Assembly (NCBI GenBank): GCA_003349885.1
Contig: QFXC01000007.1
Coordinates: 269,125-333,124 of the forward strand
Direction of reading: 5' to 3'
From: an endosymbiont of Galathealinum brachiosum
GTDB lineage: Bacteria > Pseudomonadota > Gammaproteobacteria > SZUA-229
Length of the DNA: 64,000 nucleotides
This document shows, piece by piece, positions 5,161 to 44,812 of this stretch (the stretch's first letter is position 1; each line of letters opens with the position of its first letter). The notes beneath the pieces were generated by a model. It searched no databases. It was not told the DNA's origin and saw nothing but the letters and a program-made list of their open reading frames with translations. The position numbers and the translations under genes were made by a program.

Positions 5161-5380
5161 GATGACGTCCTTCTGATCTATTATTTTGGTAAATAACGAT
5201 TTCAGACATTGCAGTAAATAAGAGAGATAATTGTCATTTTAATTGCTTTCTAATTATCTATATCGGCTTACTATTGTATTTCTTAAGCACCACCTGTAAA
5301 TTCATGACGAATAGAAAAAATAACCAGTTTTCAAACAGTAACCAGCTAAAATTTCTGCCTGTTTGCCCCCGGAGCCATTA

Positions 5381-6199: not shown

Positions 6200-6208
6200 A
6201 ATAATACA

Positions 6209-8329
6209 ATGAGTTTACCCCCCTTTACATTTGCAGAAATCGAAGAGCGTTTCGATGATATGTTTGTTGAAGCAAATGAGTCAGTTATACAACACCTGAC
6301 CCAGTTTGATATTCAAACACAGGATGCTTTGCTGGTGATTGTTGAAAAAGCCGCCAGCACAAATAGCGGTCTTGCATTCCAGTTTTCCAATCGTCTGCAA
6401 CGTGCAATTGAATTAATGGAAGTTGACACCATTGAGATGTGGCTCGATCAGGCCATTGATGTATTTGACAGCAAAGGCCTTTACGGTGCAATAGAGAAAC
6501 TGGACGAACTGGAATCAGTAGCCAATCATGCAAAACAGAAACTCACTGGCATTGCCTTTGATGAAGTTTGCAATATGCTTGAGCATTTTGTTGTCGGCCT
6601 AAATGGTCGAAAACTTAAAATTGAAAGTGATAAAAAAACCTATACCGATACAGAAACCATTTTCCTCCCTGGCATGGTAAATCGTTTTTCCGAAAAAAAT
6701 GACAACTTTCAGTTATATAAATGCACTGTGGTTTTTTTATGGGCTCAAAACTGGTTTGGTACCTGGCACAATAATCTAACAGAAACACTGTCACAACATG
6801 ATGACCCGGCGCTTGCACTGCAATGGTTTCATGTAATGGAAATGATTCGCCTTGATCAAAAAATAAAACACGAATTACCTGGTATACACCGACAAATGCA
6901 ACGTTTATGTGAACTGGCTGGCCACACCAGAGTCTGCGATATAGAGATTACAGGTTTAGAGAAAAAAAACCTGGAAAAAACCATCACTCTTCAAAGCAGC
7001 GTTAAGGATGTACTTAAATTATTACCTCAGGTTGTTCATCAACAGGCTCCCGGGTTAAATTTTTATGCAGGCTGTTTACAGACTGAGCAGGTTGAACTCA
7101 GACGTGAAATACGTTTAATAAAAGAAAAGGACTTATTTCGTCAGGCTATAGCACATGTACTAGAAGAGAAAAAAGATAAAAAAGCCAGTGAATTCACCGA
7201 AGAAGAAAGACGTGAAATCAGTGCACATGAAATCCCTGACCCTGATATGCCTGAAGGTTTTAAGTATCGGTTAGAGCTTGATGGTCAGTCAATTGAACCG
7301 CCTGACGGTGTTGAAAGCTTAATGAGTTCTATAATTCAGGATCTAGGAGAAATTCCTGATGAATATCTGGTCGCCGCAGGAGATGGTAACTACAAAGTAA
7401 TAGCGGAAGCTGAAAAATCAGAAGATGAAAATGTCTGGGCAGGAACCTATCATGAAGAAGGCGCATATTTACATAAAGAATGGGATTACCGCAGACAAAG
7501 ATATAAGAAAAACTGGTGTGCACTGCGTGAAGTTAAGCTCACATCGGGTAACACTCGTTTTGTAAAAGATACTGTTAATAAATACGCCGGTTTAATAAAA
7601 AATTTACGCCGTACTTTTGAAATATTACGCGGTGAAGATAAAACATTAAAAAAACAGCCTTATGGTGATGATATTGATATTGATGCACTCGTTGAGGCCT
7701 GGGCAGATATGGCCAGCGGACTTGAAATGTCACAAAACACCTTCACCAAAATGCATAAAGAAGAACGTAATATCGCCGTAATATTTATGGTCGATATGAG
7801 TGGTTCAACCAAAGGATGGATAAATGATGCAGAACGTGAATCACTGGTTCTGTTAAGTGAAGCCCTTGAAACACTGGGTGATCGTTATGCTATTTACGGT
7901 TTTACTGGAAACACACGTAAACGCTGCGAAGTTTATCCGGTCAAAACATTTGAGGATGAGTATGATGATGAAACTAAAGGCCGAATAGGCAATATAAAAC
8001 CTCAGGACTATACTCGTCTCGGGGTATTTATTCGTCACTTCAATCAGATGTTTGAAACAGTTGAAGCTAAAACTAAAATCCTGATTACCTTATCCGATGG
8101 CAAACCGGAAGACTATGATGGTTATCGCGGTGAGTATGGTATTGAAGATACCCGAATGGCTCTGCTTGAATCACGACAACAAGGCGTTCACCCCTTTTGC
8201 ATCACTATCGACAAAGAGGGTCGGGATTATTTAAAAACCATGTATGGCAGTGCCAGTTATGTGGTACTTGATGACGTAAAACAGCTGCCCCTCAAAGTGG
8301 CTGATATTTATCGCAATATAACCAGCTGA
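6209..8329 (+). CDS. CbbO/NorD-like protein with C-terminal von Willebrand factor A domain
   Basis: 706 aa, with a 10-bp gap after the AAA+ gene. The C-terminal vWA MIDAS motif is VIFMVDMSGST. This is the standard Q/O (NorQ/NorD) pairing. Confidence 0.75.
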   Translation: MSLPPFTFAEIEERFDDMFVEANESVIQHLTQFDIQTQDALLVIVEKAASTNSGLAFQFSNRLQRAIELMEVDTIEMWLDQAIDVFDSKGLYGAIEKLDELESVANHAKQKLTGIAFDEVCNMLEHFVVGLNGRKLKIESDKKTYTDTETIFLPGMVNRFSEKNDNFQLYKCTVVFLWAQNWFGTWHNNLTETLSQHDDPALALQWFHVMEMIRLDQKIKHELPGIHRQMQRLCELAGHTRVCDIEITGLEKKNLEKTITLQSSVKDVLKLLPQVVHQQAPGLNFYAGCLQTEQVELRREIRLIKEKDLFRQAIAHVLEEKKDKKASEFTEEERREISAHEIPDPDMPEGFKYRLELDGQSIEPPDGVESLMSSIIQDLGEIPDEYLVAAGDGNYKVIAEAEKSEDENVWAGTYHEEGAYLHKEWDYRRQRYKKNWCALREVKLTSGNTRFVKDTVNKYAGLIKNLRRTFEILRGEDKTLKKQPYGDDIDIDALVEAWADMASGLEMSQNTFTKMHKEERNIAVIFMVDMSGSTKGWINDAERESLVLLSEALETLGDRYAIYGFTGNTRKRCEVYPVKTFEDEYDDETKGRIGNIKPQDYTRLGVFIRHFNQMFETVEAKTKILITLSDGKPEDYDGYRGEYGIEDTRMALLESRQQGVHPFCITIDKEGRDYLKTMYGSASYVVLDDVKQLPLKVADIYRNITS

Positions 8330-11019: not shown

Positions 11020-12468
11020 ATGCACTCCCCAAGTTTATACTGGTACGACTATGAGACCTTCGGTACTGACCCCAGAACTGATCGAATTGCACAGTTTGCC
11101 GGCATTCGTACTGATATGGACTTCAATATTATTGAAGAGCCTGTAGATATTTACTGCAGAGCAAGTAATGATATTTTACCTAATCCTGAAGCCTGCCTGA
11201 TTACAGGTATTACCCCACAGAAAACATTTGAGAATGGTTTAATTGAAGCCGAGTTTATTTCTCTTATTGAAAAAGAGTTTGCTACACCTAATACCTGTGT
11301 TGTTGGTTTTAATAGTATACGTTTCGATGATGAATTTACCCGTTACAGCCTGTACCGAAACTTTTTTGATCCCTATGCTCGTGAATGGCAGAACGGTTGT
11401 TCTCGCTGGGATATTATTGATTTAGTCAGAATGACCCGGGCTCTGCGTCCGGAAGGCATCGAATGGCCAGTTGATGAAAATGGCATTGCAAGCAATCGAC
11501 TAGAGCTTATTACGAAGGCAAATGGAATCAGCCACGAAGCTGCACATGATGCATTATCAGATGTATATGCCACGATTGCACTGGCTAAATTAATTAAAGA
11601 TAAACAACCCAGATTATTTGATTTCGTATTTGAAAATAAAAAGAAGCAGAAGATTTCTAAAATGCTTAATTTATATAAACCAGAGGTTGTTCTTCACACC
11701 TCCGGAATGTATCCAAGCACAATTTGCAATACCACGGTCGTTTACCCCCTTGCTCAGCACCCAACCAATAAAAATGGCATTATAGTTTTTGACCTACGAT
11801 TTTCACCTGAAGATTTGAAAAATCTCAGTGCCGAAGAAATTATAAAACGCCTGTATACACCCAGAGATCAATTACCTGAAGGCGTTGAACGTATTCCTCT
11901 GAAAACGATACACATAAACAAATGTCCGGTAATTGCACCCGTTAAAACACTTGATGAAGCATCTTCTAAAAGAACTGAAATCAATCAACAACAATATACA
12001 GAACACCTTAAAATGCTACAGGACATACCTGACCTGAATAAAAAGCTGAACCAGATTTTCAGTCACAACCCATTTTCACCTGAAACTGATCCGGATAAAA
12101 GTTTATATGGAGGTGGATTTTTTAGTCCTGATGATAAAAAACGCATGGATGATTTACGCCAGTTAAGAGAAGCCGAATTAGCGAATGTTGATTTTAATTT
12201 TAAAGATAAACGAATTCCTGAAATGATATTCCGTTATCGCGCACGTAACTACCCTGGCAGTTTGAGTAATGATGAAAATATCCGCTGGAATGAGTACCGA
12301 ACAAACAGATTCACTGATAATGAAACAAAAAATAATTTAAGTTTTGAAGTTTACAATAAATTATTAACTGAACGACTGGAAGACGATTCAATTGATAACA
12401 ATAAAAAGAAGATATTGCATGAACTGCAGGAATGGGGGCAGTCTATAACGGAAGACCTAAACGTTTAA
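11020..12468 (+). CDS. sbcB: Exodeoxyribonuclease I
   Basis: N-terminus YWYDYETFGTDPRTDRIAQFAGIRTD matches the ExoI DnaQ-like exonuclease motif. Length is 482 aa. Confidence 0.9.
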   Translation: MHSPSLYWYDYETFGTDPRTDRIAQFAGIRTDMDFNIIEEPVDIYCRASNDILPNPEACLITGITPQKTFENGLIEAEFISLIEKEFATPNTCVVGFNSIRFDDEFTRYSLYRNFFDPYAREWQNGCSRWDIIDLVRMTRALRPEGIEWPVDENGIASNRLELITKANGISHEAAHDALSDVYATIALAKLIKDKQPRLFDFVFENKKKQKISKMLNLYKPEVVLHTSGMYPSTICNTTVVYPLAQHPTNKNGIIVFDLRFSPEDLKNLSAEEIIKRLYTPRDQLPEGVERIPLKTIHINKCPVIAPVKTLDEASSKRTEINQQQYTEHLKMLQDIPDLNKKLNQIFSHNPFSPETDPDKSLYGGGFFSPDDKKRMDDLRQLREAELANVDFNFKDKRIPEMIFRYRARNYPGSLSNDENIRWNEYRTNRFTDNETKNNLSFEVYNKLLTERLEDDSIDNNKKKILHELQEWGQSITEDLNV

Positions 12469-12559: not shown

Positions 12560-13174
12560 ATGCCATCTCTATCCTGTTTAAATTCTCACCTGTTTGATTT
12601 CAATACATATCGAGATGACAATAGACGACAAAAAATTGAAGATTCTATCTGGAAAGAATTTGGTAAAACCGGTGCTGTATGCGTTATAGATATGTGTGGT
12701 TTTACCCGGGCATCACAGGAAAAGGGCATTATTTACTACCTGTCAATGGTAAGAAGAATGCAAATTATCGTTGAACCTATTATTAAAGAACACAATGGAA
12801 GCGTCGTTAAGTTTGAAGCCGATAACTGTTTTGCCCGATTCAATACCGTAGAAGAAGCATTAAAAGCAGTAAAGTATATATTTGTTGCGATCGACGCGAC
12901 CAATAGAACAACACACGATGATCTTGATATAGATTTATCTATTGGAATTGATTACGGAAAATATTTATTACTTGAAGATACCGATTACTGGGGTGAGCCT
13001 GTCAATCGTGCAAGCAAGTTAGGTGAAGATATAGCCGATAAAAACAATATTTTACTTACTGACACTGCCTGGGAGCAGATTAAAAATACTGACAACTATC
13101 ATACAAAAATTAAACAACATGAAATTTCAGGCATCATGATTGATTCATATGAAATAATTAAGTTTAAAAACTAG
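12560..13174 (+). CDS. Standalone class III nucleotidyl (adenylate/guanylate) cyclase catalytic domain protein
   Basis: Metal-binding Asp lies in VIDMCGFT. The second Asp lies in KFEADNCFARF. The GEPVNRASKL motif matches the G-x-x-VN-x-A-x-R/K-L transition-state motif. The protein is only 204 aa with no other domain. Confidence 0.6.
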   Translation: MPSLSCLNSHLFDFNTYRDDNRRQKIEDSIWKEFGKTGAVCVIDMCGFTRASQEKGIIYYLSMVRRMQIIVEPIIKEHNGSVVKFEADNCFARFNTVEEALKAVKYIFVAIDATNRTTHDDLDIDLSIGIDYGKYLLLEDTDYWGEPVNRASKLGEDIADKNNILLTDTAWEQIKNTDNYHTKIKQHEISGIMIDSYEIIKFKN

Positions 13175-13175
13175 A

Positions 13176-13493
13176 TCAACTATCCTTAATATTATTCACA
13201 ATTTCACTTAATGTATAAAACTGTGCATTTCGCATAAAACCTGCAATAACTTCTTCTTTTAGGGTCAATGCCACACCTTTATCATCTCTCTCTTTTATCC
13301 AGCATTCAGGCAGTCCATCAAATAAATGCATGACGGATAATTCACCGTTACGGTCCTGTGAGAGATGTATATGCTGGTTCTTTAAATTTTTAAATGCCGG
13401 CATAAATCCAAAGCTGATATCGCTAAAAACGACGCCATTAAATTGATGGTAAGCACCCTGCTGTCGAACAGCCTGATGATGTGACATATACAT
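13176..13493 (-). CDS. Hypothetical protein
   Basis: ORF downstream of and convergent with the cyclase. The first ATG is at 13493 (the ORF track uses GTG 13508). No motif was recognised. Confidence 0.3.
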   Translation of the reverse strand: MYMSHHQAVRQQGAYHQFNGVVFSDISFGFMPAFKNLKNQHIHLSQDRNGELSVMHLFDGLPECWIKERDDKGVALTLKEEVIAGFMRNAQFYTLSEIVNNIKDS

Positions 13494-13578
13494 ATGAATA
13501 TCCTGCACTAATAGGCTACTTTTTAATATATCGGCCAGGACATGAGTTTCTTTAATACTAATTCAATAGATTAACTGG

Positions 13579-14172
13579 TTATTTTTTACTCAGAAGATCT
13601 TCGATCAATTCATTAGATATTGCCGTCAAAGCCGCCCCAAAGGCTTCTGCAGTACTATGCATATCAGTATTCTGTAACGCCTCATTTACTTTGTAACGCT
13701 TAGTCCAGGTGTCACCAGTGAGGCTTCCACTTTTCACAGATACTTCAAGTTCAATTTCTATATTTACAGTTTGACCATTAATTATTCGCTCAAAATGAAT
13801 AATTCGGGTATCCAGAACAAAGTCAGGTCGATTTTCTGTTAAGTCACGATTAACCTGATCAGCTATACCACTGGATACTACTCCCTGATATAACGCATTA
13901 TGTACTAACTCAGCAGGTGTGGTTGACCAGAAACTATAATGATAACGCTGTAGCTCTAATGGTTTATCACTTTCTATAAATAAAATAGCCCGCTCATGAT
14001 ATAAGCCCGTGGATTTTACCGCTTTAACCACTATCGATTTATAAGATGCAACCTGAGAATCCAGTGCAACTTCAGGTAGGCGATAAAAGTGATCGGTAGG
14101 TGCAGGGCCACCACCCAGACTACAGCTCCAGATACTACTCACTAAAAGGAGTAATAATATTAATCGAAACAT
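13579..14172 (-). CDS. PqiC/YmbA-like ABC-transport auxiliary lipoprotein (DUF330 family)
   Basis: Lipoprotein signal with lipobox (LLVSSIWSCS). It is the last gene of the MCE/ABC operon, the position the auxiliary lipoprotein normally occupies. Confidence 0.65.
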   Translation of the reverse strand: MFRLILLLLLVSSIWSCSLGGGPAPTDHFYRLPEVALDSQVASYKSIVVKAVKSTGLYHERAILFIESDKPLELQRYHYSFWSTTPAELVHNALYQGVVSSGIADQVNRDLTENRPDFVLDTRIIHFERIINGQTVNIEIELEVSVKSGSLTGDTWTKRYKVNEALQNTDMHSTAEAFGAALTAISNELIEDLLSKK

Positions 14173-14181
14173 TGATATTCC

Positions 14182-15036
14182 TTACTTATCAGTGGGTGGT
14201 TTACTGCCTAATATCACACCCGGATTATTACGTAATTCTCGACTGAACTCATTCATGTTCTGACTGGTTGCATCCAGATTATACATAACTGATTCAATGC
14301 GACTGGAAACAACATCAATAGATTTTTTAAGTTCTATTACGGTATAGCGAATATCTTCACTATTATCATTCAGGATCAGATCAGTTCTTGTAAGAATGCT
14401 ATCAAGCTGTTTATTGATTCTTGTAAAACCAGCAGCCAGTTCTGATAAACTTTTACCGGATGAATCGGCATGTTTGAATAAATTATTTAAATGTTGCACA
14501 TTATTATCACTCAATAAAAGCGACACCTTATCCGCAGAATAATTTAATTTTGCTATTAAATTATTTATATTATTTGTTGACTGGGGAATAAAATCATTTA
14601 ATTGAGAAGCAATTGAATCAACCAGCTCCATAATATCAACCGCTTCTGCACTTTCCAGTGTATCTCCAGGAGATAAATATTTTTTTGAACTTCCCTGAGT
14701 TATTTCTATTTGTTTATCTGAAATAATGGCTGGCATCACAATTTGAGCTGTACTATCAGCTGGTATTTTCCAGTCGGATTTCACCCATAAGGTTAATTTA
14801 TAAACCGTTTTATTGGTATCAAATATAGGTTCTACACCCTTAACTGCACCTATGGCATAACCTCCATACGTGACAACAATGCCATCTTTTATTCCGGTTA
14901 CGTTATTAAACTCAACAAAATATTCATCTGATTCTGATTGTCCACCCGTTATTTTATACAACATAACAAATAACATTATTAAACCGGTTAGAACAAAAAT
15001 TCCTACCATAAAATAATTCGTATTTTCTTTTTTCAT
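14182..15036 (-). CDS. MCE-domain (MlaD/PqiB-like) substrate-binding protein
   Basis: N-terminal TM anchor followed by an MCE domain (EFNNVTGIKDGIVVTYGGYAIGAV). It lies 8 bp downstream of the ATPase gene. Confidence 0.8.
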   Translation of the reverse strand: MKKENTNYFMVGIFVLTGLIMLFVMLYKITGGQSESDEYFVEFNNVTGIKDGIVVTYGGYAIGAVKGVEPIFDTNKTVYKLTLWVKSDWKIPADSTAQIVMPAIISDKQIEITQGSSKKYLSPGDTLESAEAVDIMELVDSIASQLNDFIPQSTNNINNLIAKLNYSADKVSLLLSDNNVQHLNNLFKHADSSGKSLSELAAGFTRINKQLDSILTRTDLILNDNSEDIRYTVIELKKSIDVVSSRIESVMYNLDATSQNMNEFSRELRNNPGVILGSKPPTDK

Positions 15037-15044
15037 ATTATTAA

Positions 15045-15902
15045 CTAATATCTTGAATGATTAGGATTAATTAAATTTGATTTTTCAGGTACCGAATCCA
15101 GACTTTTACCCGTCAATCTCTGCAAATATTCATCAACATCAACTATATCTCGACGCGGTTTTCTATGAAGTAAATTATAGATACGATGATTATCACTATT
15201 TTTCACCTCTTCTACCGTACCACACATCAATATATCCCCCCTGTCTAAAATAGTAATTCTGTCAGCAATATTAAATGCACTTTCCAGTTCATGGGTAACA
15301 ACTACAATCGTCATACCCATTGCATCTCTAAGGCGCAGAATTAATTCATCAAGCTCTGCAGACACAACCGGATCAAGTCCGGCTGAGGGCTCATCAAAAA
15401 ATAATAGTTTCGGATCAAGGATAATTGCTCTGGCTAATGCGGCACGTTTAATCATACCGCCGGATAACTGGGACGGCATTAAGTCTTCAAAACCGGCCAT
15501 GTTAACAACTTCCAGTTTCATCTGACTCATTATTCGCATGGTGTTCTCATCCAGGTTTGCATGTTCGCTTAAAGGTAACTGAATATTTTCAGATACACTC
15601 ATGGAACCAAACAAAGCACCACCCTGAAAAGACACTCCAATCTGCTTTTTCATTTGATGCAGCTGGTTAGAGGTCATTCTGGTAATGTCTTTGCCAAGTA
15701 ATTTAATACTACCTGCAGTTGGTTTATTAAGCCCTAACATATACCGTAAAAGAGTACTTTTACCTGAACCACTCCCCCCCATAATAACCATGATTTCGCC
15801 TTTATTCACTTCAAGGCTAACACTATTAAGTATTTTTTTACTTCCGTAATGCGTAATCAGATCACTCACTTCAATTACTTTCTGGTTGTTTTCAGCTTGC
15901 AT
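15045..15902 (-). CDS. ABC transporter ATP-binding protein (MlaF-like)
   Basis: Walker A motif GGSGSGKSTLLR, ABC signature LSGGMIKRAALARA, and Walker B motif LLFFDEPSAGLD. Confidence 0.85.
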   Translation of the reverse strand: MQAENNQKVIEVSDLITHYGSKKILNSVSLEVNKGEIMVIMGGSGSGKSTLLRYMLGLNKPTAGSIKLLGKDITRMTSNQLHQMKKQIGVSFQGGALFGSMSVSENIQLPLSEHANLDENTMRIMSQMKLEVVNMAGFEDLMPSQLSGGMIKRAALARAIILDPKLLFFDEPSAGLDPVVSAELDELILRLRDAMGMTIVVVTHELESAFNIADRITILDRGDILMCGTVEEVKNSDNHRIYNLLHRKPRRDIVDVDEYLQRLTGKSLDSVPEKSNLINPNHSRY

Positions 15903-15912
15903 AATAAATACT

Positions 15913-16704
15913 CTAAACTCTGGTTAAAAAGAAAGTAAAAATCATATCCGCAATTACAATAAGACTTATAGACATAACCACCGAACGAGTAGTTGCCAAC
16001 CCTACACCTTCAGCCCCACCTTTAACCTGAAAACCATTAAGCACACTGACAATAACAATCAGTATTGCAAACACGATGCTCTTAAAAATACCCTGCATTA
16101 AATCAAAGCGGGTAATCACATCAAAACTTCGACTCATATACACGTCTACAGGCATACCTAGTTCGTAAGATGTATATACTGCCCCACCTAACATTCCCAT
16201 TAAATCACCAAAAATAGTTAATACCGGCATCGCCACAAGCATCGCTACAAGTGCAGGTGCAGCAAGGTAGCGCACCGGGTTTATGCCTATCACTCGTAAT
16301 GCATCTATCTCCTGTGACTCCTTCATCGTCCCTATTCGTGCTGCGATAGCAGAGCCTGAACGCCCAGCTACAATAATACCGGTAATTAAAGCTGCGAACT
16401 CACGTGTCACTGAGACTGCAATCCCCGTTACAACCTGCGCCTGTGCCCCATAAGGTTTGAGTGTTTCCAGCCCCTGTATTGCAAGCATCATTCCTACTGA
16501 AAAACACAACACGATAACAATAGGTGATGCGGTTACACCTATCTGTACTGCCTGAGTAAAAATAAGATGCAAACTGACAGGCTGTTTATTAAACCAGCCC
16601 ATTATTAGCCAGTAAACTGATTCAATAAATAACATGACGCCATAGCCGAGCTCTTCAACCGCTCCAACCGCAACCTGCCCCAGTTTTTCAATTCGGCGTT
16701 TCAT
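15913..16704 (-). CDS. MlaE-family ABC permease
   Basis: 263-aa polytopic membrane protein with a typical MlaE/TTG2B layout. It lies 10 bp upstream of the ATPase gene. Confidence 0.8.
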   Translation of the reverse strand: MKRRIEKLGQVAVGAVEELGYGVMLFIESVYWLIMGWFNKQPVSLHLIFTQAVQIGVTASPIVIVLCFSVGMMLAIQGLETLKPYGAQAQVVTGIAVSVTREFAALITGIIVAGRSGSAIAARIGTMKESQEIDALRVIGINPVRYLAAPALVAMLVAMPVLTIFGDLMGMLGGAVYTSYELGMPVDVYMSRSFDVITRFDLMQGIFKSIVFAILIVIVSVLNGFQVKGGAEGVGLATTRSVVMSISLIVIADMIFTFFLTRV

Positions 16705-16722
16705 TTTGTACGCGTCATACCT

Positions 16723-17043
16723 CTATTCAACCTCATCCAGAGAATCATAAATAGTAAATACCGAATCAAGACGAGCCAGCTGTAAAACCTGCATCGCAGA
16801 ATCACTCACACCGACCAGTGCAAAGTTTATTTTTTTAGATCGAGCAGTCTGCAAACCTTCAACCAGACTCGCTACACCAGAGCTATCAATATATTCGACT
16901 AGTGATAAATCTATTAATAAATTCGAATTTTTCTTTATGTAAGCTAATATTTGTTTTCTTACATTTGGTGATTCATTCAAATCAATTTCACCAGACAAAC
17001 TGATAACCGAATAATTTAAATGCTGTGCAACTGGATACTTCAT
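16723..17043 (-). CDS. STAS-domain anti-sigma-factor antagonist (SpoIIAA/RsbV/MlaB-like)
   Basis: 106 aa. The phosphorylatable-Ser region is EYIDSSGVASLVEG. Confidence 0.75.
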   Translation of the reverse strand: MKYPVAQHLNYSVISLSGEIDLNESPNVRKQILAYIKKNSNLLIDLSLVEYIDSSGVASLVEGLQTARSKKINFALVGVSDSAMQVLQLARLDSVFTIYDSLDEVE

Positions 17044-17052
17044 TAAACTGCC

Positions 17053-17502
17053 TTATTTTTTACATTGTTCATCTATACAACAGACAACAGGATTATTTAA
17101 CTGTTTTCGCATTTCCAGTATATTTCCTGTACCACTCGGGTTGTTTTTATATTCCACACTATCCATTACCTGATTGATGATGTGCACACCTAATCCTCCG
17201 GGTCTTATATCATCAAGATCTCTTGAATGTATAGAATCAAGATCTACACCCTCTGCAAAATCAAATATTTTTACTAAAAACTCTTCTTTATCTTTCCAGA
17301 ATTCAACAATAATCTCTTCACTATCCTGCTCATGATAGGCGTGTTGCATTACATTCATACATCCTTCATTAATCGCCATAACCATGCAGTCCAGATTCTC
17401 AGGGCAACAGCCCTGTTTCTCAGCTAAATCACGCACAAAGTGTCGCAGTGGTTTCAGCTTATCAGCACGGGATAACAAATGAATACGTTCAAGTCTAATC
17501 AT
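17053..17502 (-). CDS. RsbW/SpoIIAB-like anti-sigma factor serine kinase (GHKL ATPase)
   Basis: 149 aa. HATPase_c G-box region is DIRPGGLGVHIINQVMD. Confidence 0.7.
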   Translation of the reverse strand: MIRLERIHLLSRADKLKPLRHFVRDLAEKQGCCPENLDCMVMAINEGCMNVMQHAYHEQDSEEIIVEFWKDKEEFLVKIFDFAEGVDLDSIHSRDLDDIRPGGLGVHIINQVMDSVEYKNNPSGTGNILEMRKQLNNPVVCCIDEQCKK

Positions 17503-17503
17503 C

Positions 17504-19213
17504 TTATTCAGACTTTTCTAATAGTAATAACGTCACATCATCACGTAATGGCTGAGCCGTATTCGTAAACTTATTAACTATTAACTTCAGTCTTTCAACT
17601 GGAGATAATTTTTTATCCATACTGGCTATCAGCTTAAACAACCCACCTAATTCAAGCATAGACTTTTCATTAACAAATCCTTCCGTTACACCATCAGAGT
17701 ATATATACAGACTGCCACTGCCTAATTTTATTATTGATTTTGTATAAAGCGTATCAGGCATCACACCCAATGGAGGTGCTGTTGCTTCAAATTCCTGACA
17801 GAATCCCTCTTCTAAAAATAACAATGCAGGCGGGTTTCCCGCATTTACCAGATGCACTTCATCTTTTGATGGCCTGTATAAACCTGCAACCATCGTTACA
17901 AACATGCCATGGATCGATGTTTCGCATAATTCATTATTTATTTCATACATCAACTGAGCCGGCTCATCAATCCGTTTACCCAGACACCTGAAAAGGCTAC
18001 AGGTTTTAGCCATTAATAATGCGGCATTCACACCTTTGCCGGAAACATCGCCAAGATTAAAATAAATATCACCATTATCCAGTTCAAAGAAATCATAAAA
18101 ATCACCAGATAAAATTTTTGCCGATATATTAATTCCGTTAACCGGAAAACCATCACCCTGACTCGCAGGTAATAAGCTTTGTTGTATTTCCCTCGCTAAA
18201 TTTAAATCGCGATTGATTTCTTTTGCCAGACGATCACGTTCATCCAGTGCCTGCTCAAGTCGTAATGTTAACTCTTGAAAATTAACATTATCTTCATTTA
18301 ACCTGATATTTGCTTCATATAATATTTGTGAAAAAGCGATATGTTCATGTACATGTATTCCCATCACCAATGCGGTTAAATCAACCTCATCCGGTATTGC
18401 CTCAAGTAACTCTTCTGCTCGATAGGGTTCCATGAAAAAATCGTCAGACAACATTTTTCTACATCTATTAATAACATAACTTTTATCATCAGCGGTATAA
18501 ACTGACGTCATCCAGTCTGCACAATGAACCACTTTGCAAAGCTGTTTATCCAGCTCTGTAAAACCGGCATCACTTAAATTTGATTTGCTACAATTGTGAT
18601 GATGAGTTAACTGGGTTTTTATTTGCGGAAATATACCCCACGCTTTCATAAAAATACTTAACTGTGCATCATGCTGTAAATTGAATATATTCTGTTCCAT
18701 ACTTAAGCGGGCTTCCGGCTCACGTTTTCGAAACTCAGACCAGAGCGCACCTTTGTCTGGCTGTTCTAGAAACAGCAACAGATACCCGATATCCTGAATG
18801 AATCCAGCGGTAAAGCACAGGCTGGCATCAAGCCCGATTAATTCACCGACCATTTTTGCACTAACAGCACGACGCAACGAGTCCTGCCAGAAAGCAGGCA
18901 TATCCAGACCAAAAATTTTATACTGATTTAACGTGCGATAAATAATCTGAATAATCGCTATTTGCGTAACTCGCTCAATACCCGACAAGTTAATTGCCTG
19001 ATAAATGGTTTGTACTTTTGTTGTTAAATTAAAATGATCTGAGTTAATAATTTTAAGCAACCGCTGAAAAAATTGCGGATATTTTTCCATCAACTGATTA
19101 ACCGCCTGCTCCATATCATCCGTATGTTGAGCTAATTCCAGAAAATCACGGGCAATAGCGGGCAAATCAGGCATACCCGGGGCATTTAAATTAACTGTTT
19201 TATGAGCAGGCAC
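17504..19213 (-). CDS. HDOD-domain protein fused to PP2C (SpoIIE/RsbU-type) serine phosphatase
   Basis: The N-terminus is an HDOD-like signalling domain. The C-terminus is a PP2C domain with metal-binding Asp motifs (SGDFYDFF, GDVSGKGVNAALLMA, IYSDGVTEG). The ORF track uses a GTG start; an alternative ATG lies at 19174. Confidence 0.75.
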   Translation of the reverse strand: MPAHKTVNLNAPGMPDLPAIARDFLELAQHTDDMEQAVNQLMEKYPQFFQRLLKIINSDHFNLTTKVQTIYQAINLSGIERVTQIAIIQIIYRTLNQYKIFGLDMPAFWQDSLRRAVSAKMVGELIGLDASLCFTAGFIQDIGYLLLFLEQPDKGALWSEFRKREPEARLSMEQNIFNLQHDAQLSIFMKAWGIFPQIKTQLTHHHNCSKSNLSDAGFTELDKQLCKVVHCADWMTSVYTADDKSYVINRCRKMLSDDFFMEPYRAEELLEAIPDEVDLTALVMGIHVHEHIAFSQILYEANIRLNEDNVNFQELTLRLEQALDERDRLAKEINRDLNLAREIQQSLLPASQGDGFPVNGINISAKILSGDFYDFFELDNGDIYFNLGDVSGKGVNAALLMAKTCSLFRCLGKRIDEPAQLMYEINNELCETSIHGMFVTMVAGLYRPSKDEVHLVNAGNPPALLFLEEGFCQEFEATAPPLGVMPDTLYTKSIIKLGSGSLYIYSDGVTEGFVNEKSMLELGGLFKLIASMDKKLSPVERLKLIVNKFTNTAQPLRDDVTLLLLEKSE

Positions 19214-19481
19214 AGGTTTTCAGATTAAAATTTTTATAAATTAAAGTGAATAGAGTATAGCTGCTGTTTGACACAAAAGTGATAGAAAACAGTGATTTAA
19301 TCGCAAGTAAGCTGAACAGAGATGAATCCGAACAATCGGCTTTCCGCTTTTTATATTCGTTAAGCGATACAACTAAATTCTTATATAGTACCTGTGAATA
19401 TTACTCCACTAAGCTCTATACTCATAAATGGAACCACACATCAAAAACACAGTCTTATAGCAATTATTATGAGAATTTTTT

Positions 19482-20429
19482 ATGCCTCAGCAGTCTAGTT
19501 TAAATATTGATCAACGCCAGCAGTTAATAAAACTTACTTCAAAATCAATTTCTTCTATTATTCTGGGTAAAGACAGGCAAATTCAACTCGCCCTTAGCTG
19601 CCTGCTAGCCGGTGGACATCTGTTAATTGAGGACTTACCTGGAGTTGGCAAAACCACTCTATCACTGACACTGGCTCGTGTTTTTGGGCTCGATTTTCAA
19701 CGTATTCAGTTCACCAGCGATTTATTGCCTTCCGATGTATTAGGTGTTTCTATATTTGATGCACACAAACAGTCATTCACGTTTCATCAGGGCCCCATAT
19801 TCACACAGGTACTGCTTGCTGATGAAATTAATCGCTCTACACCTAAAACTCAAAGTGCATTACTTGAAGCAATGGAAGAAAAACAGGTCACGCAGGACGG
19901 TGTAACCCGAACTTTACCCACCCCATTCTTCGTTATTGCGACTCAGAACCCGATGGAACAGGTAGGTACATTTCCTTTGCCTGAATCACAACTCGATCGT
20001 TTCCTGATGCGCATTAATATCGGTTACCCGGATCAACAGGCCGAAATGGAATTATTAAAAGGCAGTAACCGCCATGAAATGATCCAGCAACTTGAGACCG
20101 TTATCACACCTGAACAACTGATTGAAATACAGTTATCTGTAGAAAAAATACATATGTCACAGGCAATACTGGATTATGTTTTATCCCTTATACGCAGCAG
20201 TCGCCTGTCTCCCTGGTTTATTAGCGGTCTTTCTCCTCGCGCTGGCCTTGCATTACAACGATGCGCCCGGGCCTGGGCATTTCTTCAGAATCGTGACCAT
20301 GTATTACCTGAAGATGTACAGGAAGTGCTTCCCTGTGTGGCTGCACACCGATTACAAATACATCCTGAGCACCAGGGTAAGAATATCAATGATCTGATAA
20401 CGTTACTTGTAAAGCAGGTGCCAGTTTAA
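19482..20429 (+). CDS. MoxR-family AAA+ ATPase
   Basis: Walker A motif LPGVGKTTL, Walker B motif LLADEINR, and a length of 315 aa. Confidence 0.9.
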   Translation: MPQQSSLNIDQRQQLIKLTSKSISSIILGKDRQIQLALSCLLAGGHLLIEDLPGVGKTTLSLTLARVFGLDFQRIQFTSDLLPSDVLGVSIFDAHKQSFTFHQGPIFTQVLLADEINRSTPKTQSALLEAMEEKQVTQDGVTRTLPTPFFVIATQNPMEQVGTFPLPESQLDRFLMRINIGYPDQQAEMELLKGSNRHEMIQQLETVITPEQLIEIQLSVEKIHMSQAILDYVLSLIRSSRLSPWFISGLSPRAGLALQRCARAWAFLQNRDHVLPEDVQEVLPCVAAHRLQIHPEHQGKNINDLITLLVKQVPV

Positions 20430-21415
20430 TGGCATCCAGCCTGCCCTTAATTCCTCAGTTTTTTGAACGTTTTATACTCAAATGGGCAGAAAAACGTCAG
20501 CCCCTTACTCACCCTCAAATTACCATAAACCATCGTCAGTTATATATTTTGCCTACTCGTCATGGCATCACATATCTCTTTATATTATTGCTAATTCTGT
20601 TTGGCTCTATCAACTATGAAAACAGTCTGGGTTATATGCTGACGTTTCTACTGGTGGCACTGGGTTTTCTCGCAATGATCTATACCCACTTCAATATAAA
20701 CCAGCTTGTAGTAAAGCTGGGCCGCGCTGAACCTGTTTTTGCCGGGCAGGATATTTTATTTCCAGTCTATATTTCGCAAGTATCAAATATTACCCGTCCG
20801 AACTTAAAGCTACTTTCAGAAACCGGTCAAATATCAACTGCGCATTTAATTGAGACAACAGAAACCGAATGTAATCTTTCATTAAGCACACTTCATAGGG
20901 GATATATTTCACCCGGACGAATTAAGTTATCGAGTGAATACCCACTGGGATTATTTCATGCCTGGAGCTGGTTAAATCTTCAAAGCCAATGCCTGGTTTA
21001 CCCTGCTCCAGACTCACATCACCACCCTTTCAGTTTTTCAGAAGACGATAATCAGGGTTTAACTATTAGCGATAAGCAGGGTGTAGATGATTTTGCTGGT
21101 ATCAGACAATACCACGCGGGTGATTTACCTAACCATATGGCCTGGAAAGCAATCGCTAAAACAGGTGAACTACAGACAAAATTATTTAACCACGAAACTT
21201 CAAGAAAGATATGGATAAGCTGGAAAAACACCAGTGAAACCCTGGATATAGAGCAACGACTATCAATTTTATGTCGCATGATTATTGATGCCTGCGAAAA
21301 CAATACTGTTTATGGAGTAGATATACCGGGTACCAGTATTGCTCCATCTTCTGGCTTACAACATAAACACCAATGTTTAAAAGCGCTTGCCCTGTTTGGT
21401 CACAACGAACAATGA
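20429..21415 (+). CDS. DUF58-family protein (vWA-like partner of MoxR)
   Basis: Start overlaps the MoxR stop by 1 nt. It occupies the conserved middle position of the MoxR-DUF58-TgpA operon. Confidence 0.7.
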   Translation: MASSLPLIPQFFERFILKWAEKRQPLTHPQITINHRQLYILPTRHGITYLFILLLILFGSINYENSLGYMLTFLLVALGFLAMIYTHFNINQLVVKLGRAEPVFAGQDILFPVYISQVSNITRPNLKLLSETGQISTAHLIETTETECNLSLSTLHRGYISPGRIKLSSEYPLGLFHAWSWLNLQSQCLVYPAPDSHHHPFSFSEDDNQGLTISDKQGVDDFAGIRQYHAGDLPNHMAWKAIAKTGELQTKLFNHETSRKIWISWKNTSETLDIEQRLSILCRMIIDACENNTVYGVDIPGTSIAPSSGLQHKHQCLKALALFGHNEQ

Positions 21416-23391
21416 ATTTAAATAACCAGACAATAAATGCCCTTAGTCAATCGCCTGTATTCTGGGTTACATTGTCACTGGCATTTGTCATTACTCCTCA
21501 TCTGGGTCGGTTCCCAGCATGGTCAATTGTTCTTATAAGTGTTTTATTTTTATGGCGACTCGTATGCATAAAACATAAACGCTGGTTACCGCCTAAATTT
21601 TTTCTATTATTAATTAGTATATTATCATTAGCCGGAATATTTATATTTTTTGGCACGCTGATTGGAAAAACGGCAGGCTCTGTTGTGTTATCAATTTTAC
21701 TTGCCATTAAGCTACATGAAAGTCAGTCTCGCCGTGATTACATGTTATTAATATTTTTAAGTTTTTTTGTCATTGTTACTAATTTTCTGTTTTCACAAAG
21801 CATCCCAACTGTTATTTTTATGTTAATGGCTATAATATTTTTAATCATTAGCATGATTAGTATTAACCAGGGTTCAGCTCCCCTTAGTTTTAAATACAAA
21901 TCAAAATTCGCTGTAAAAATGCTACTGCAAGCTATCCCGCTCATGTTAATTATGTTTGTGCTATTCCCCAGAATATCAGGAACCTTATGGCAGCTTCCCG
22001 ATGACAATCTATCTTCTCAAAGCGGCTTGAGTGACAGCATGTCTCCTGGCAACATTTCTAACCTGATACAGTCAAACTCTGTTGCATTCCGGGTTAATTT
22101 TGAAAAAGAAATTCCCCAGCAAAACAAACTATACTGGAGAGCCCTTGTTTTATGGTATTTTGATGGTAAAACATGGGAACAGGGAAAACAAAATCTTTCA
22201 CCCGTTACGACATTATATCCACGGTCTAATGATTTAGTTAGTTACACAGTAACTATGGAACCACATCAGAAGAACTGGTTATTCGCATTAGATATCCCCT
22301 ACGATATACCTGACAATGCATTCTATACAAAAAACTATAATTTACGCACAAAGCAGAAAATAAATAGCCTTTATCAGTATAAAGTATCATCAATTTTTGA
22401 TTATATTATTCAAAGTAAAATAACACCGTGGGAAAAAAGTGCAGGACTTAAAATCCCCATAAATACAAACCCCCAAACTGTTCAGTTGGGTAAGCAACTA
22501 TCAAAACAATATAAGAATAAAGATGATATTGTGAATCATGTATTGAATCTTTTTAATAAAGAAAATTTTCATTACACGTTACGCCCACCATTAACGCCTG
22601 GATTTAATCCTGTCGATCAGTTTTTATTTAATTCACGCCGTGGCTTTTGTGAGCACTATGCCAGTAGTTTTACCTTACTGATGCGCGCAGCTGGCATACC
22701 GGCAAGAGTAGTTTTAGGTTACCAGGGGGGTACAGTAAACCCTTTAAATAAAGTAATGACCATTCGCAATAGTGATGCACATGCCTGGTCTGAAGTCTGG
22801 TTTAAAGACAGGGGCTGGGTACGTATTGATCCAACAGCAGCCATAGCACCTATGAGAATAGAACGTAACCTTGAGGCAGCATTAGCACCTTCTGAATATC
22901 GCCCATTTCATATGTTGATTAATAGCGGTTTCATTGAAGATGTTTTATTTTACTGGGATGCAGTCGATAATCAATGGAACGAATGGGTAGTTGGTTATGA
23001 TGAAAAAATTCAACAGGACTTATTAGAGGCGATAACCAGTAAAAAAATTAACCTTTCTGACATTATATTGATGCTGGTGATCAGTTTTAGCGTAATGATT
23101 ATTATTTTATCAATCATTATTTTCAAACCCTGGAAAAAACAGAAACTTGATCCTGTCGTGAAAACCTATAATAACTTCTGCAGGAAGTTAGACTCCAGAG
23201 GTATTCACAGAGAGATATATGAAGGACCATTAGATTTTTCAAAGAGAGCTATCAGGATATTACCGAACAATAAAAGTTCAATTGAGTTAATTACTCATTT
23301 GTATACAAAATTGAGGTATGAATCATCGAATAATGAAAAACAGTTTCACCAGTTCCGGCATCTCGTCAGAACGTTTAAACCATCTAAATGA
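21412..23391 (+). CDS. Transglutaminase-like membrane protein TgpA (DUF3488 + transglutaminase core)
   Basis: Catalytic Cys lies in RRGFCEHYAS, the His lies in DAHAWSEVW, and the Asp lies in RIDPT. It has an N-terminal polytopic region. An ATGA start/stop overlap with the DUF58 gene at 21412-21415 is preferred over the ORF-track start at 21373. Confidence 0.8.
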   Translation: MNLNNQTINALSQSPVFWVTLSLAFVITPHLGRFPAWSIVLISVLFLWRLVCIKHKRWLPPKFFLLLISILSLAGIFIFFGTLIGKTAGSVVLSILLAIKLHESQSRRDYMLLIFLSFFVIVTNFLFSQSIPTVIFMLMAIIFLIISMISINQGSAPLSFKYKSKFAVKMLLQAIPLMLIMFVLFPRISGTLWQLPDDNLSSQSGLSDSMSPGNISNLIQSNSVAFRVNFEKEIPQQNKLYWRALVLWYFDGKTWEQGKQNLSPVTTLYPRSNDLVSYTVTMEPHQKNWLFALDIPYDIPDNAFYTKNYNLRTKQKINSLYQYKVSSIFDYIIQSKITPWEKSAGLKIPINTNPQTVQLGKQLSKQYKNKDDIVNHVLNLFNKENFHYTLRPPLTPGFNPVDQFLFNSRRGFCEHYASSFTLLMRAAGIPARVVLGYQGGTVNPLNKVMTIRNSDAHAWSEVWFKDRGWVRIDPTAAIAPMRIERNLEAALAPSEYRPFHMLINSGFIEDVLFYWDAVDNQWNEWVVGYDEKIQQDLLEAITSKKINLSDIILMLVISFSVMIIILSIIIFKPWKKQKLDPVVKTYNNFCRKLDSRGIHREIYEGPLDFSKRAIRILPNNKSSIELITHLYTKLRYESSNNEKQFHQFRHLVRTFKPSK

Positions 23392-25084: not shown

Positions 25085-26203
25085 ATGAATAAACGCACTC
25101 GCCAGATACCCCACAAAACCCTGATTTGCCTACTTTCAGCTATTTCAGCTTTATCGCTCACTGCCTGTGGCAATGATAATAACGAAGTAAAAGCGGAAGT
25201 TATCAGACCAGCAAAAATTATTACGGTTGGTGACCCTCTTGCAGGTGTACAAAGAGTTTATCCCGGTGAGGTAGAAGCAGGTGACCGCTCTGAACAGGCT
25301 TTTCGTGTGGGGGGTGAACTGGTTAAGTTACCTGCGAAAGCCGGCTTAAAAGTTAAAAAGGGGCAACTGTTAGCTCAACTGGATGCTTCAGATTTTCAGT
25401 TACGTGTTGATGAACAACAGGCCAGATTTGACTTAACACAGGTACAGTTTGACCGAACCGAAAAACTGGTAAAGCAGCAATTAATACCTATATCCGATTT
25501 CGATACAGCAAAATCCAATCTGCTTGCAGCTAAAGCAGATCTAAGATTAGCTAAAGCCAATTTATCTTATACAGAATTACGTGCACCTTTCGATGGCGTT
25601 GTTTCAAAATTAAATGTAAAAAACCATGAAAACGTTAGAAAAAATGAAGTTGTTCTAGTTATTCAAACAGTTAATGATATTGATATTACCTTTCAATTAT
25701 CTGAAAACATCATCTCGAGACTAAAAAAAGGCAGTGATCAAAAAGCCCAACCAAAAGTTGTGTTTGATACCTACCCGGATAAGTCTTATGAAACATCCGT
25801 GAAAGAGTTTGACTCTGAAGCAAACGCGACAACTCGAACTTACAAAGTGACCCTCACAATGCCGTCTCCTAAAGATTTTATTGCATTGCCAGGCATGAGT
25901 GTAAATGTACATTTAAATTTCAACAAACTTGTGGAGTCTGAAACAGCTAAAATAGTCATACCGATTGAAGCCGTTTATTCTCCTGAAAATGATAACCTTA
26001 AATCACGCAGCTATCAGGTATGGAAACTTGATAATGACACAATGAAAACTCAGGCAACTAAAGTAACCATTGGGCAAATTACCAGTTCCGGAATTGAAAT
26101 AACATCAGGGCTAACATCAGGGGATCAGGTAATTACTGCGGGTGTTAACTTCATAAAAGAAGGCCAGACAGTAAAACCCTGGGTAAAAGAAGCAGGGCTT
26201 TAA
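25085..26203 (+). CDS. RND efflux periplasmic adaptor (MFP) lipoprotein
   Basis: Lipobox LSLTAC, with coiled-coil and beta-barrel adaptor architecture. It lies directly upstream of an RND permease gene. Confidence 0.85.
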   Translation: MNKRTRQIPHKTLICLLSAISALSLTACGNDNNEVKAEVIRPAKIITVGDPLAGVQRVYPGEVEAGDRSEQAFRVGGELVKLPAKAGLKVKKGQLLAQLDASDFQLRVDEQQARFDLTQVQFDRTEKLVKQQLIPISDFDTAKSNLLAAKADLRLAKANLSYTELRAPFDGVVSKLNVKNHENVRKNEVVLVIQTVNDIDITFQLSENIISRLKKGSDQKAQPKVVFDTYPDKSYETSVKEFDSEANATTRTYKVTLTMPSPKDFIALPGMSVNVHLNFNKLVESETAKIVIPIEAVYSPENDNLKSRSYQVWKLDNDTMKTQATKVTIGQITSSGIEITSGLTSGDQVITAGVNFIKEGQTVKPWVKEAGL

Positions 26204-26292
26204 AGAAATCTGTCAGGATTTTATAAATGGAAGATATTAAGTTTATAACTTTAATATCCCTTATTTCTCTACACTTAAAGTAATTCAACGCT

Positions 26293-44714: not shown

Positions 44715-44812
44715 TAATTTGTAACTCTCTTAAACATTGTCATATCTGAATATTTATATCTGGATTCCAGTTTGTATCAGGGGATGAGATACACACTGAA
44801 GCAACAGTCGTA

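Follow-up and report, generated by a model that had tools for sequence, protein, structure and literature searches.

We propose that a small STAS protein encoded by an endosymbiont of Galathealinum brachiosum probably acts as a phosphorylatable equivalent of MlaB, whose binding to the ATPase MlaF would gate an Mla-family envelope lipid transporter. The stretch analyzed here, referred to as the window, comprises 64 kb of contig QFXC01000007.1. On its minus strand, from position 19213 to 13579, the map of open reading frames (ORFs) contains seven consecutive ORFs with successive gaps of 1, 9, 18, 10, 8, and 9 bp. They encode, in order, an HDOD-PP2C phosphatase (19213-17504), an RsbW-like kinase (17502-17053), the STAS protein (17043-16723), an MlaE permease (16704-15913), an MlaF ATPase (15902-15045), an MCE protein (15036-14182), and a PqiC-like lipoprotein (14172-13579). 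A preliminary description of this DNA had listed seven minus-strand genes spaced by 1-18 bp. All seven ORFs lie where that description placed them, the Pfam and NCBIfam domain calls agree with each of its labels, and the motif it quoted, EYIDSSGVASL, is present in the STAS protein. It further suggested that these two enzymes switch the STAS protein and that the transporter is controlled in this way, or alternatively that the module releases a sigma factor; the comparative evidence below supports the first of these readings and favors it over the second.

The products of the first three genes have the features of a partner-switching module. The phosphatase (569 aa) carries an N-terminal HDOD domain (residues 14-207, Pfam E 2e-29), which is joined through a coiled-coil linker to a PP2C/SpoIIE-family serine phosphatase domain (SpoIIE, residues 380-566, E 3e-36). 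Reading of the sequence by eye predicts a helical stretch at residues ~305-345, N-terminal to the PP2C domain. The metal-binding motifs GDFYD, GDVSGKG, DG, and DD are kept across 119 relatives. The protein unites the metal-binding aspartates with an N-terminal sensor, as expected for the phosphatase of such a module, and is predicted to dephosphorylate the phosphorylated STAS protein. Its gene starts either with GTG at 19213 or with an in-frame ATG 12 codons downstream. The exchange of N-terminal sensors on PPM phosphatases via a helical linker is an established "exchangeable toolkit" (PMC12143880), and HDOD is not among the phosphatase sensor domains listed in that work. Genes of the cyclic-di-GMP type are present in the same 64 kb, encoding an HD_5 (HD-GYP-like) protein (37961-39394, minus strand), a 7TMR-DISM GGDEF protein (39753-41411, plus strand), and a REC-GGDEF-EAL protein (61302-62996, plus strand); this gene cluster may be relevant to sensing by the HDOD domain.

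The RsbW-like GHKL serine kinase (149 aa, Pfam HATPase_c_2 E 2e-26) begins 1 bp after the phosphatase gene and adjoins the STAS gene with a 9-bp gap. RsbW is its best NCBIfam match, and RsbW chain 6m36_A is its sole match in the PDB search. The ATP-binding boxes are intact, and the N-box, the G1 residue Asp81, and the G2 motif PGGLG are kept across 143 relatives. The kinase is predicted to phosphorylate Ser54 of the STAS protein. The latter is a single-domain protein of 106 aa, recognized by the Pfam models STAS and STAS_2 and by TIGR00377. It harbors the motif D53-S54-S55-G56, which places a phosphorylatable residue in the D-S/T-x-G context at the start of helix alpha-2; the codon of Ser54, the predicted phosphosite, is located at 16884-16882. 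The D-S-S-G phosphosite is invariant in all 157 members of the STAS family, and the longer motif DSSGVASLVEG is invariant or nearly so in all relatives. Across these relatives, the STAS protein (51-83% identity) is conserved about as well as MlaF (61-85%, with a frameshifted copy in locus L082 at 51%) and better than its own kinase, which with 28-75% is the least conserved cytoplasmic component.

The four genes following the STAS gene encode the transporter. The permease (263 aa, Pfam MlaE E 2e-66) lacks a fused STAS domain and is 28% identical to E. coli MlaE. The ATPase (285 aa, Pfam ABC_tran) finds MlaF as its best match in both NCBIfam and the PDB, with MlaF of A. baumannii, P. aeruginosa, and E. 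coli as the top PDB matches, and is 40% identical to E. coli MlaF. Both proteins score below the NCBIfam equivalog cut-offs (210 bits against 212 for MlaE with TIGR00056; 208 bits against 441 for MlaF), and are therefore family members rather than equivalogs of the E. coli type. The Walker A and B motifs, the LSGGM signature, and the H-loop of MlaF are conserved among relatives; the conservation profiles of the phosphatase, kinase, STAS protein, and MlaF cover 115-157 relatives. MlaF also possesses a C-terminal extension (residues ~246-285, 15048..15167, minus strand), which in the family alignment contains the nearly invariant motif D-x-(D/E)-x-Y259-L-x-R-L263-T. MAFFT pairs the Y259/L263 motif with Y261/L265 of E. 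coli MlaF. We propose MlaF as the binding partner of the STAS protein.

The MCE protein (284 aa, compared with 183 aa for E. coli MlaD) contains a single MCE domain (Pfam MlaD, residues 38-115), an N-terminal membrane helix, and a C-terminal alpha-helical region of ~135 residues, the "needle". In the AlphaFold2 model, a helix at residues 8-30 is followed by a beta domain at 36-129 and helices at 135-270; only this secondary structure is used here because the mean pLDDT is 66. Homologues of the protein give faint precomputed matches to Helical_needle. The lipoprotein (197 aa) belongs to the ABC_trans_aux (PqiC/YmbA-type) family (PF03886, E 9e-9), and has a signal peptide with a cysteine at the lipobox position, MFRLILLLLLVSSIWSC. 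Its gene is the last of the four-gene transporter set both in relatives and in the Azoarcus and Ruegeria operons described below.

The combination of a long needle MCE protein, a PqiC-type lipoprotein, and no MlaC in the window indicates the Mla-Pqi chimeric (Mpc) architecture. The earlier designation as an Mla/MCE-type transporter with a PqiC-like lipoprotein is correct, and Mpc is its more exact form. The short MlaD, MlaC, and MlaA that together characterize the canonical Mla system do not occur here: MlaC has no tblastn match within the window, and no MlaA family was detected among 39 window ORFs scanned with Pfam, MlaA itself not having been queried directly. All four Mpc genes are present, encoding the MlaE-like, MlaF-like, needle MCE, and PqiC-like proteins. 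In the described Mpc architecture, MlaE carries the STAS domain as an N-terminal fusion; in the window, STAS is a separate gene located 18 bp upstream, forming a split version. The operon resembles Brucella abortus Mpc (MpcEFDA, PMC12436622), which likewise consists of MlaE-like, MlaF-like, long-needle MCE, and PqiC-like components, and both are without MlaC and MlaA.

The seven-gene arrangement is widely conserved. A scan with the STAS alignment over one genome per species gave at least 582 relatives, and a metagenome scan at least 588; the best 80 of each were kept, and seven further contigs were looked up directly. All loci were surveyed by tblastn with the window proteins and reference proteins, and after removal of identical STAS genes 144 loci had enough downstream sequence to judge. 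An Mla gene lies directly 3' of the STAS gene in 130 of these 144 informative non-identical loci (90%). Using primed names for window-type, Mpc-like genes and unprimed names for canonical, E. coli-like ones, 111 loci have the order of the window, STAS then MlaE'-MlaF-MCE'-lipoprotein (type A). The canonical set MlaF-MlaE-MlaD-MlaA-MlaC follows the STAS gene in ten loci (type B), MlaE-MlaD-MlaA-MlaC with a convergent mlaF just downstream in two (type B'), and both transporter sets in one (type C, L037). Six loci are truncated or of type D, with MlaF followed by unrelated genes (three, including L028, which is a type A locus with a degraded MlaE) or by the contig end (three). A further locus, L117, shows an MlaC fragment on a 1.2-kb contig, and 13 loci have no Mla gene, the STAS gene being followed directly by a CHASE2 cyclase gene in five of them. 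The preliminary description had pointed to co-occurrence of the arrangement as a check, and more than 100 non-identical genomic and metagenomic loci repeat the order of the window.

The junctions between the genes are tight as well. The median gap between STAS and MlaE is 6 nt; of 66 loci, 63 stay within 50 nt and 27 have a predicted overlap. The phosphatase-to-kinase gap has a median of -4 nt. These lengths are approximate, as the start codons were predicted by script. The gene arrangement is far beyond chance. Its hosts are mostly sulfur-oxidising or symbiotic Gammaproteobacteria, including Thiohalobacter, Thiogranum, Methylohalomonas lacus, Thiodiazotropha, Endoriftia, and Acidiferrobacteraceae. 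A separate search with the MCE protein gave 189 matches with identities of 48% or more; two of their contexts were inspected and have the same arrangement.

Comparison of the locus types reveals which parts are exchanged and which are retained. The constant core is formed by the phosphatase, kinase, and STAS genes together with MlaF; the E. coli counterparts of the last two, MlaB and MlaF, interact with each other. The phosphatase sensor is HDOD in the clade of the window and GAF in another, and each sensor occurs with both type A and type B transporters. MlaF is the Mla component kept beside the STAS gene in all Mla-linked locus types. In type B loci, the MlaF after STAS is 56-68% identical to that of the window, and the MlaE is 39-42% identical to E. 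coli MlaE compared with ~30% to the window MlaE; short MlaD, MlaA, and MlaC come next. In the two type B' loci (L163:2196-6216 and L165:2850-6915), the STAS gene is followed by canonical MlaE-MlaD-MlaA-MlaC, and the convergent mlaF just after mlaC encodes a protein 64-67% identical to that of the window. Two other loci, L071 and L161, consist of kinase, STAS, and MlaF, then unrelated genes.

Particularly, the type C locus (L037:7876-16439) contains eleven genes, encoding the HDOD-PP2C phosphatase, kinase, STAS, MlaE', MlaF, MCE', lipoprotein, MlaE, MlaD, MlaA, and MlaC. Its two permease/MCE sets come with just one MlaF and one STAS protein, and no MlaB follows MlaC, where ~1.1 kb is free of operon-strand ORFs of at least 80 aa. 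This suggests that one ATPase-STAS pair is common to two MCE systems.

Several lines of comparison place the STAS protein in the position of MlaB. We searched all stop-to-stop ORFs of at least 55 aa in the loci of types B, B', and C in two ways: with phmmer using E. coli MlaB as the query, and with a family HMM, for which E. coli MlaB served as the control and was recovered at 1.5e-5. In 13 of 13 loci, the kinase-linked STAS protein is the only STAS-like ORF and therefore the only candidate for MlaB, and in the canonical-type loci it gives the best phmmer matches to E. coli MlaB, down to 4e-7. Alignment of the STAS family with E. coli MlaB by hhalign yields a probability of 71% and superimposes D53-S54 on D51-T52, a homology that is detectable but weak. 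In addition, on plasmids of Azoarcus (pAZKH) and Ruegeria, homologous four-gene operons with the same Mpc architecture have MlaE proteins (378 and 374 aa) whose N-terminal part is a STAS_2 domain with D-T-x-G at the phosphosite. Brucella MpcE likewise has a STAS domain fused N-terminally to MlaE (PMC12436622). Located 18 bp upstream of MlaE, the separate STAS gene of the window lies collinear with these STAS-MlaE fusions.

The E. coli system provides a structural frame for the proposed contact. In the crystal structure, the Y261/L265 extension of MlaF inserts into the groove between MlaB and the neighboring MlaF, and MlaF fails to join MlaE without MlaB (PMC7367683). The phosphomimetic substitution T52E in MlaB reduces MlaF binding, and the authors of that study pose phosphoregulation of MlaB as an open question (PMC7367683). 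The operon described here resembles E. coli MlaFEDB (PMC5016091, PMC7367683) in that MlaF with its C-terminal extension, MlaE, an MCE protein, and a small STAS protein are encoded in one operon, and in having a Ser/Thr after a conserved Asp where helix alpha-2 begins (S54 here, T52 in MlaB). Moreover, the type B relatives carry the full MlaF-E-D-A-C set after the STAS gene with no other MlaB. In contrast to E. coli, where the STAS gene is the last of the operon, it stands here upstream of the transporter genes, and the window transporter is without MlaC and MlaA, has a long MCE protein, and includes an extra PqiC-like lipoprotein. The dedicated kinase and phosphatase distinguish the present operon from any described Mla system.

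Based on these comparisons, we suggest the following mechanism. The operon would produce an Mpc-kind MCE transporter for envelope lipids, composed of the MlaE permease, the MlaF ATPase, the needle-forming MCE protein, and the PqiC-like lipoprotein of the outer membrane. The unphosphorylated STAS protein would bind MlaF's helical subdomain and its C-terminal extension and, like MlaB in E. coli, would stabilize or activate this ATPase on the permease. The RsbW-like kinase would phosphorylate Ser54 at the N-terminus of helix alpha-2, which corresponds to the position of MlaB Thr52 in the center of the MlaB-MlaF interface. Phosphorylation would release the STAS protein from MlaF and turn the transporter off. 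The HDOD-PP2C phosphatase, replaced elsewhere by GAF-PP2C, would strip the phosphate once its sensor is triggered, probably by a nucleotide second messenger, and transport would be restored. The direction of this switch, with phosphorylation as the off state, the STAS-MlaF contact, and the nature of the signal are points that we infer from the comparisons above.

Alternatively, the STAS protein could be a constitutive MlaB-like structural subunit, with the kinase and phosphatase acting mainly on something else, such as MlaF or MlaE, or with the kinase docking on the transporter and the STAS protein titrating it away. Everything that ties the STAS protein to the transporter fits this arrangement equally, and in classical systems it is the kinase, not the STAS protein, that holds the output protein. 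RsbW/SpoIIAB-family kinases, however, phosphorylate their cognate STAS protein. The invariance of DSSG in 157 STAS proteins and the conserved ATP-binding motifs of the kinase fit the STAS protein as the substrate, and we found no independent sign of another kinase substrate. We regard this alternative as very unlikely.

Several observations weigh against a phosphorylatable MlaB equivalent. The STAS sequence is of the canonical anti-sigma-factor antagonist type rather than that of an MlaB equivalog: it scores 75 bits with TIGR00377, the model for such antagonists (cut-off 53), and 30.9 bits with the MlaB equivalog model NF033618 (cut-off 90). Its nearest PDB relatives are TM1442, RsfB, and RsbV; weaker matches are the MlaB chains in the MlaFEDB structures of Acinetobacter. 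What we propose is thus that the protein works like MlaB, not that it is an MlaB equivalog. In E. coli, the T52A variant of MlaB is non-functional yet still binds MlaF, which its authors consider hard to square with simple phosphoregulation (PMC7367683). The MlaF of Veillonella, an organism without MlaB, has a shorter C-terminal extension (PMC10665443). We had considered the extension of the window MlaF as proof of dependence on MlaB and have downgraded it to a suggestive feature, because Veillonella MlaF retains one without any MlaB. Inter-protein covariation (mutual information with average product correction, 90-143 paired sequences) between STAS and MlaF is no higher than in the negative controls, STAS with the periplasmic MCE protein or lipoprotein; the positive control, STAS with the kinase, also failed to stand out, and phylogenetic signal dominates. 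The case for STAS-MlaF binding and for STAS phosphorylation is drawn from gene context and homology. Furthermore, the locus counts are not independent events, since the loci are phylogenetically related.

The loci without a transporter are the main point on this side. In 13 of the 144 loci, distributed over at least five places on the STAS tree, the phosphatase, kinase, and STAS genes are kept without an Mla gene within ~10 kb. No STAS residue is relaxed in these module-only loci, and all residues conserved in the transporter-linked loci are equally kept. This leaves two possibilities: Mla genes at another place in those genomes, or a further conserved partner of the STAS protein. The loci leave room for a second output, including a distant sigma factor.

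Such an output is the core of a classical partner switch, in which the kinase would hold a sigma factor (for example RpoS) or another regulator, the unphosphorylated STAS protein would free it, and the transporter genes would merely be co-transcribed, for example as part of the same stress response, with the STAS protein never touching MlaF. Both HMM scores and the nearest PDB relatives mark the STAS protein as a canonical RsbV-type and the kinase as a canonical RsbW-type protein, and the STAS protein is unchanged in the 13 module-only loci. In one locus without Mla genes (L054:7860-10001), HDOD, PP2C, and RsbW-like kinase are fused in a single 713-aa ORF followed by the STAS gene, an architecture that we take to recall the RpoS-controlling HsbR partner switch of P. 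aeruginosa. Fused PP2C-kinase proteins in other Gammaproteobacteria reportedly have RpoS as the kinase-held target. At L054, the STAS gene is followed by an overlapping 169-aa ORF without a family, and a BLUF-domain protein is encoded 1.4 kb downstream.

In classical sigma-B and sigma-F modules, the gene for the sigma factor is a neighbor of the kinase gene. Here, tblastn with E. coli RpoS, FliA, and RpoE, which cross-detect one another in control loci, gave no match to a sigma-70-family gene at E values up to 0.01 in the window and 167 loci (2.13 Mb, with flanks of ~10 kb). Pfam scans of 30 further large window ORFs contained no sigma or anti-sigma families. The protein that such a kinase holds is usually encoded in the same operon; no RpoS-, FliA-, or RpoE-like candidate for it was found in these sequences, and a target may lie at a distance. 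The sigma-factor alternative of the preliminary description loses ground in the neighborhood of these 168 sequences and keeps it in the 13 module-only loci. Mere co-transcription fails to explain why the STAS gene stays beside MlaF when the rest of the transporter is swapped or lost, why canonical-type Mla operons occur here without another MlaB, why STAS-MlaE fusions exist in homologous operons, and why the kinase is the least conserved cytoplasmic component. We consider this alternative unlikely, with somewhat more in its favor than a purely structural STAS subunit.

A different input and target are suggested by the GAF clade. Its gene order is EndoIII-DUF1841-GAF-PP2C-kinase-STAS-[transporter]-CHASE2 cyclase, and occurs with and without the transporter cassette. 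The CHASE2-adenylate/guanylate cyclase (747 aa; L061:13617-15860, L042:10370-12616) often adjoins the module in this clade, which hints at a cyclic nucleotide as the signal. On this basis the module could be a cyclic-nucleotide circuit running from the cyclase through a cyclic nucleotide monophosphate and GAF-PP2C to the STAS protein, with a target other than lipid transport and with the four-gene cassette inserted repeatedly at a permissive site between the STAS and cyclase genes. A small cyclase-domain gene near the window operon would also suit such a circuit. However, the linkage between module and transporter is found in the HDOD clade as well, where no CHASE2 cyclase is present, and with the different, canonical Mla set, in which MlaF comes directly after STAS. 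The overlapping or few-nucleotide junctions fit co-translation better than passive insertion, and it is unlikely that two different Mla cassettes would by chance have entered the same site repeatedly. We accordingly give this circuit little credence.

Returning to the STAS protein as a switchable MlaB equivalent, a broader version can be formulated, which we offer tentatively and regard as doubtful at present. In the sulfur-oxidising and symbiotic Gammaproteobacteria of this lineage, one phospho-switchable MlaB-like STAS protein on a common MlaF might be the master valve that governs MCE-type lipid traffic in the envelope. Both routes, the trans-envelope Mpc-like bridge and the MlaC shuttle of the canonical system, would be under its control, as L037 suggests. 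The setting of the valve would depend on phosphatases that sense second messengers, namely GAF-PP2C, fed by the adjacent CHASE2 cyclase, in one clade and HDOD-PP2C in that of the window. Mycobacterial MceG/Mkl offers a parallel as one ATPase common to several Mce transporters (PMC9947336). The gene content of L037 likewise suggests one MlaF-family ATPase for several MCE permease sets. No STAS subunit or phosphorylation switch has been described for MceG, which sets it apart from the present system. If the master valve exists, Mla-family transporters would gain their first natural example of phosphoregulation, and partner switches their first output that is an ABC ATPase.

The module itself is built like RsbU/RsbW/RsbV and SpoIIE/SpoIIAB/SpoIIAA, with a PPM/PP2C phosphatase bearing an N-terminal sensor and helical linker, a GHKL kinase, and a STAS protein with DS(S/T)G. 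It differs from the RsbU/RsbW/RsbV modules in that the genes after STAS encode an ABC lipid transporter and no sigma-factor gene was found in the operon or within ~10 kb in any of the 168 sequences. Compared with Mpc and its Azoarcus and Ruegeria homologues, in which STAS is fused to MlaE, the STAS gene here is separate and preceded by kinase and phosphatase genes; no such genes are annotated alongside the Azoarcus and Ruegeria operons. Modules that resemble partner switches but have non-sigma outputs are known as well, and a STAS protein or domain with a phosphorylation state set by a dedicated kinase and/or PP2C is described for SypE/SypA of Vibrio fischeri (PMC10120452), HsbR/HsbA of P. aeruginosa (PMC6482189), and HenR with a STAS-glycosyltransferase in Anabaena (PMC13555669). 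SypE/SypA and HenR target polysaccharide or envelope functions (PMC10120452, PMC13555669) and the HsbR/HsbA work concerns RpoS availability (PMC6482189). None of the outputs given there is an ABC transporter ATPase, in contrast to the target proposed here, MlaF, which has a structurally defined STAS site in its E. coli homologue.

The individual parts of the operon belong to known families. In the open-access literature, we found no description of an Mla-family transporter whose STAS subunit has its own kinase and phosphatase: full-text searches gave no RsbW-type kinase or PP2C phosphatase coupled to Mla/MCE genes and led only to the E. coli structure study with its question on MlaB phosphoregulation, and kinases go unmentioned in a phylogenomic survey of Mla systems. 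Mla/MCE transporters have a bearing on the integrity of the outer membrane, the formation of vesicles, tolerance to antibiotics, and virulence, and we know of no kinase for E. coli MlaB. The parts that the question of MlaB phosphoregulation in E. coli had lacked are united in this operon family, in which the STAS protein that occupies the position of MlaB is accompanied by a kinase of its own and a phosphatase linked to a sensor. If our reading is correct, partner switching would extend from sigma factors to the direct control of an ABC transporter, and second-messenger sensing (HDOD, GAF, and the nearby cyclases) would be tied to envelope lipid homeostasis. It would also show how chemosynthetic symbionts, including relatives in Endoriftia and Thiodiazotropha, may tune their envelope.

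The operon is separated from a divergent MoxR-like ATPase gene by 268 bp (19214..19481). This intergenic region is the sole space large enough for an operon promoter and presumably contains it; no convincing consensus promoter was found there. A consensus promoter scan returned 21 promoter-like sites compared with 28 expected from shuffled sequence, and a terminator scan four terminator-like sites compared with 3.9, with none between the genes in either case. As these scans perform no better than on shuffled sequence, they say nothing on transcript boundaries.

A possible eighth gene, ORF8 (13176..13508, minus strand), is located 70 bp downstream of the lipoprotein gene and encodes a conserved hypothetical protein, probably of 105 aa starting from 13493. 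Its membership in the operon is uncertain. ORF8 is syntenic in the closest clade of the window only, with 48 homologues in 5.8 billion proteins; it matches no Pfam or NCBIfam family, and its AlphaFold2 model (pLDDT 65) gives no significant fold match. Convergent with ORF8, with one base between the stop codons, lies the small cyclase gene mentioned above (12560-13174, plus strand). It encodes a stand-alone 204-aa protein with a class III adenylate/guanylate cyclase domain (E 1e-6) as its only domain, and was not found at that position in relatives.

On the other side of the intergenic region, genes divergent from the operon (19482-23391, plus strand) encode the MoxR-like AAA ATPase, a DUF58-like protein of 328 aa, and a 672-aa transglutaminase-domain membrane protein. 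In the closest relatives (L001, L004, L006, and L086), these genes keep their synteny with the operon, as does exonuclease I (11020-12468) on the opposite flank. Further away, a minus-strand ORF of 1865 aa (29407-35004) has multiple ABC ATPase P-loops in addition to UvrA interaction and UvrA DNA-binding domains; with about twice the normal UvrA length, its product looks like a tandem or duplicated UvrA-like protein. A CbbQ/NorQ-type AAA ATPase (278 aa) and a following 706-aa ORF without a Pfam match at E 1e-5 (5363-8329, plus strand) look like a CbbQ-CbbO-like activase pair, which is plausible in a chemoautotrophic symbiont. In addition, the window harbors two RND efflux pairs (25085-29352, plus strand, and 41514-45826, minus strand), each composed of an HlyD-family adaptor and an AcrB-family pump.

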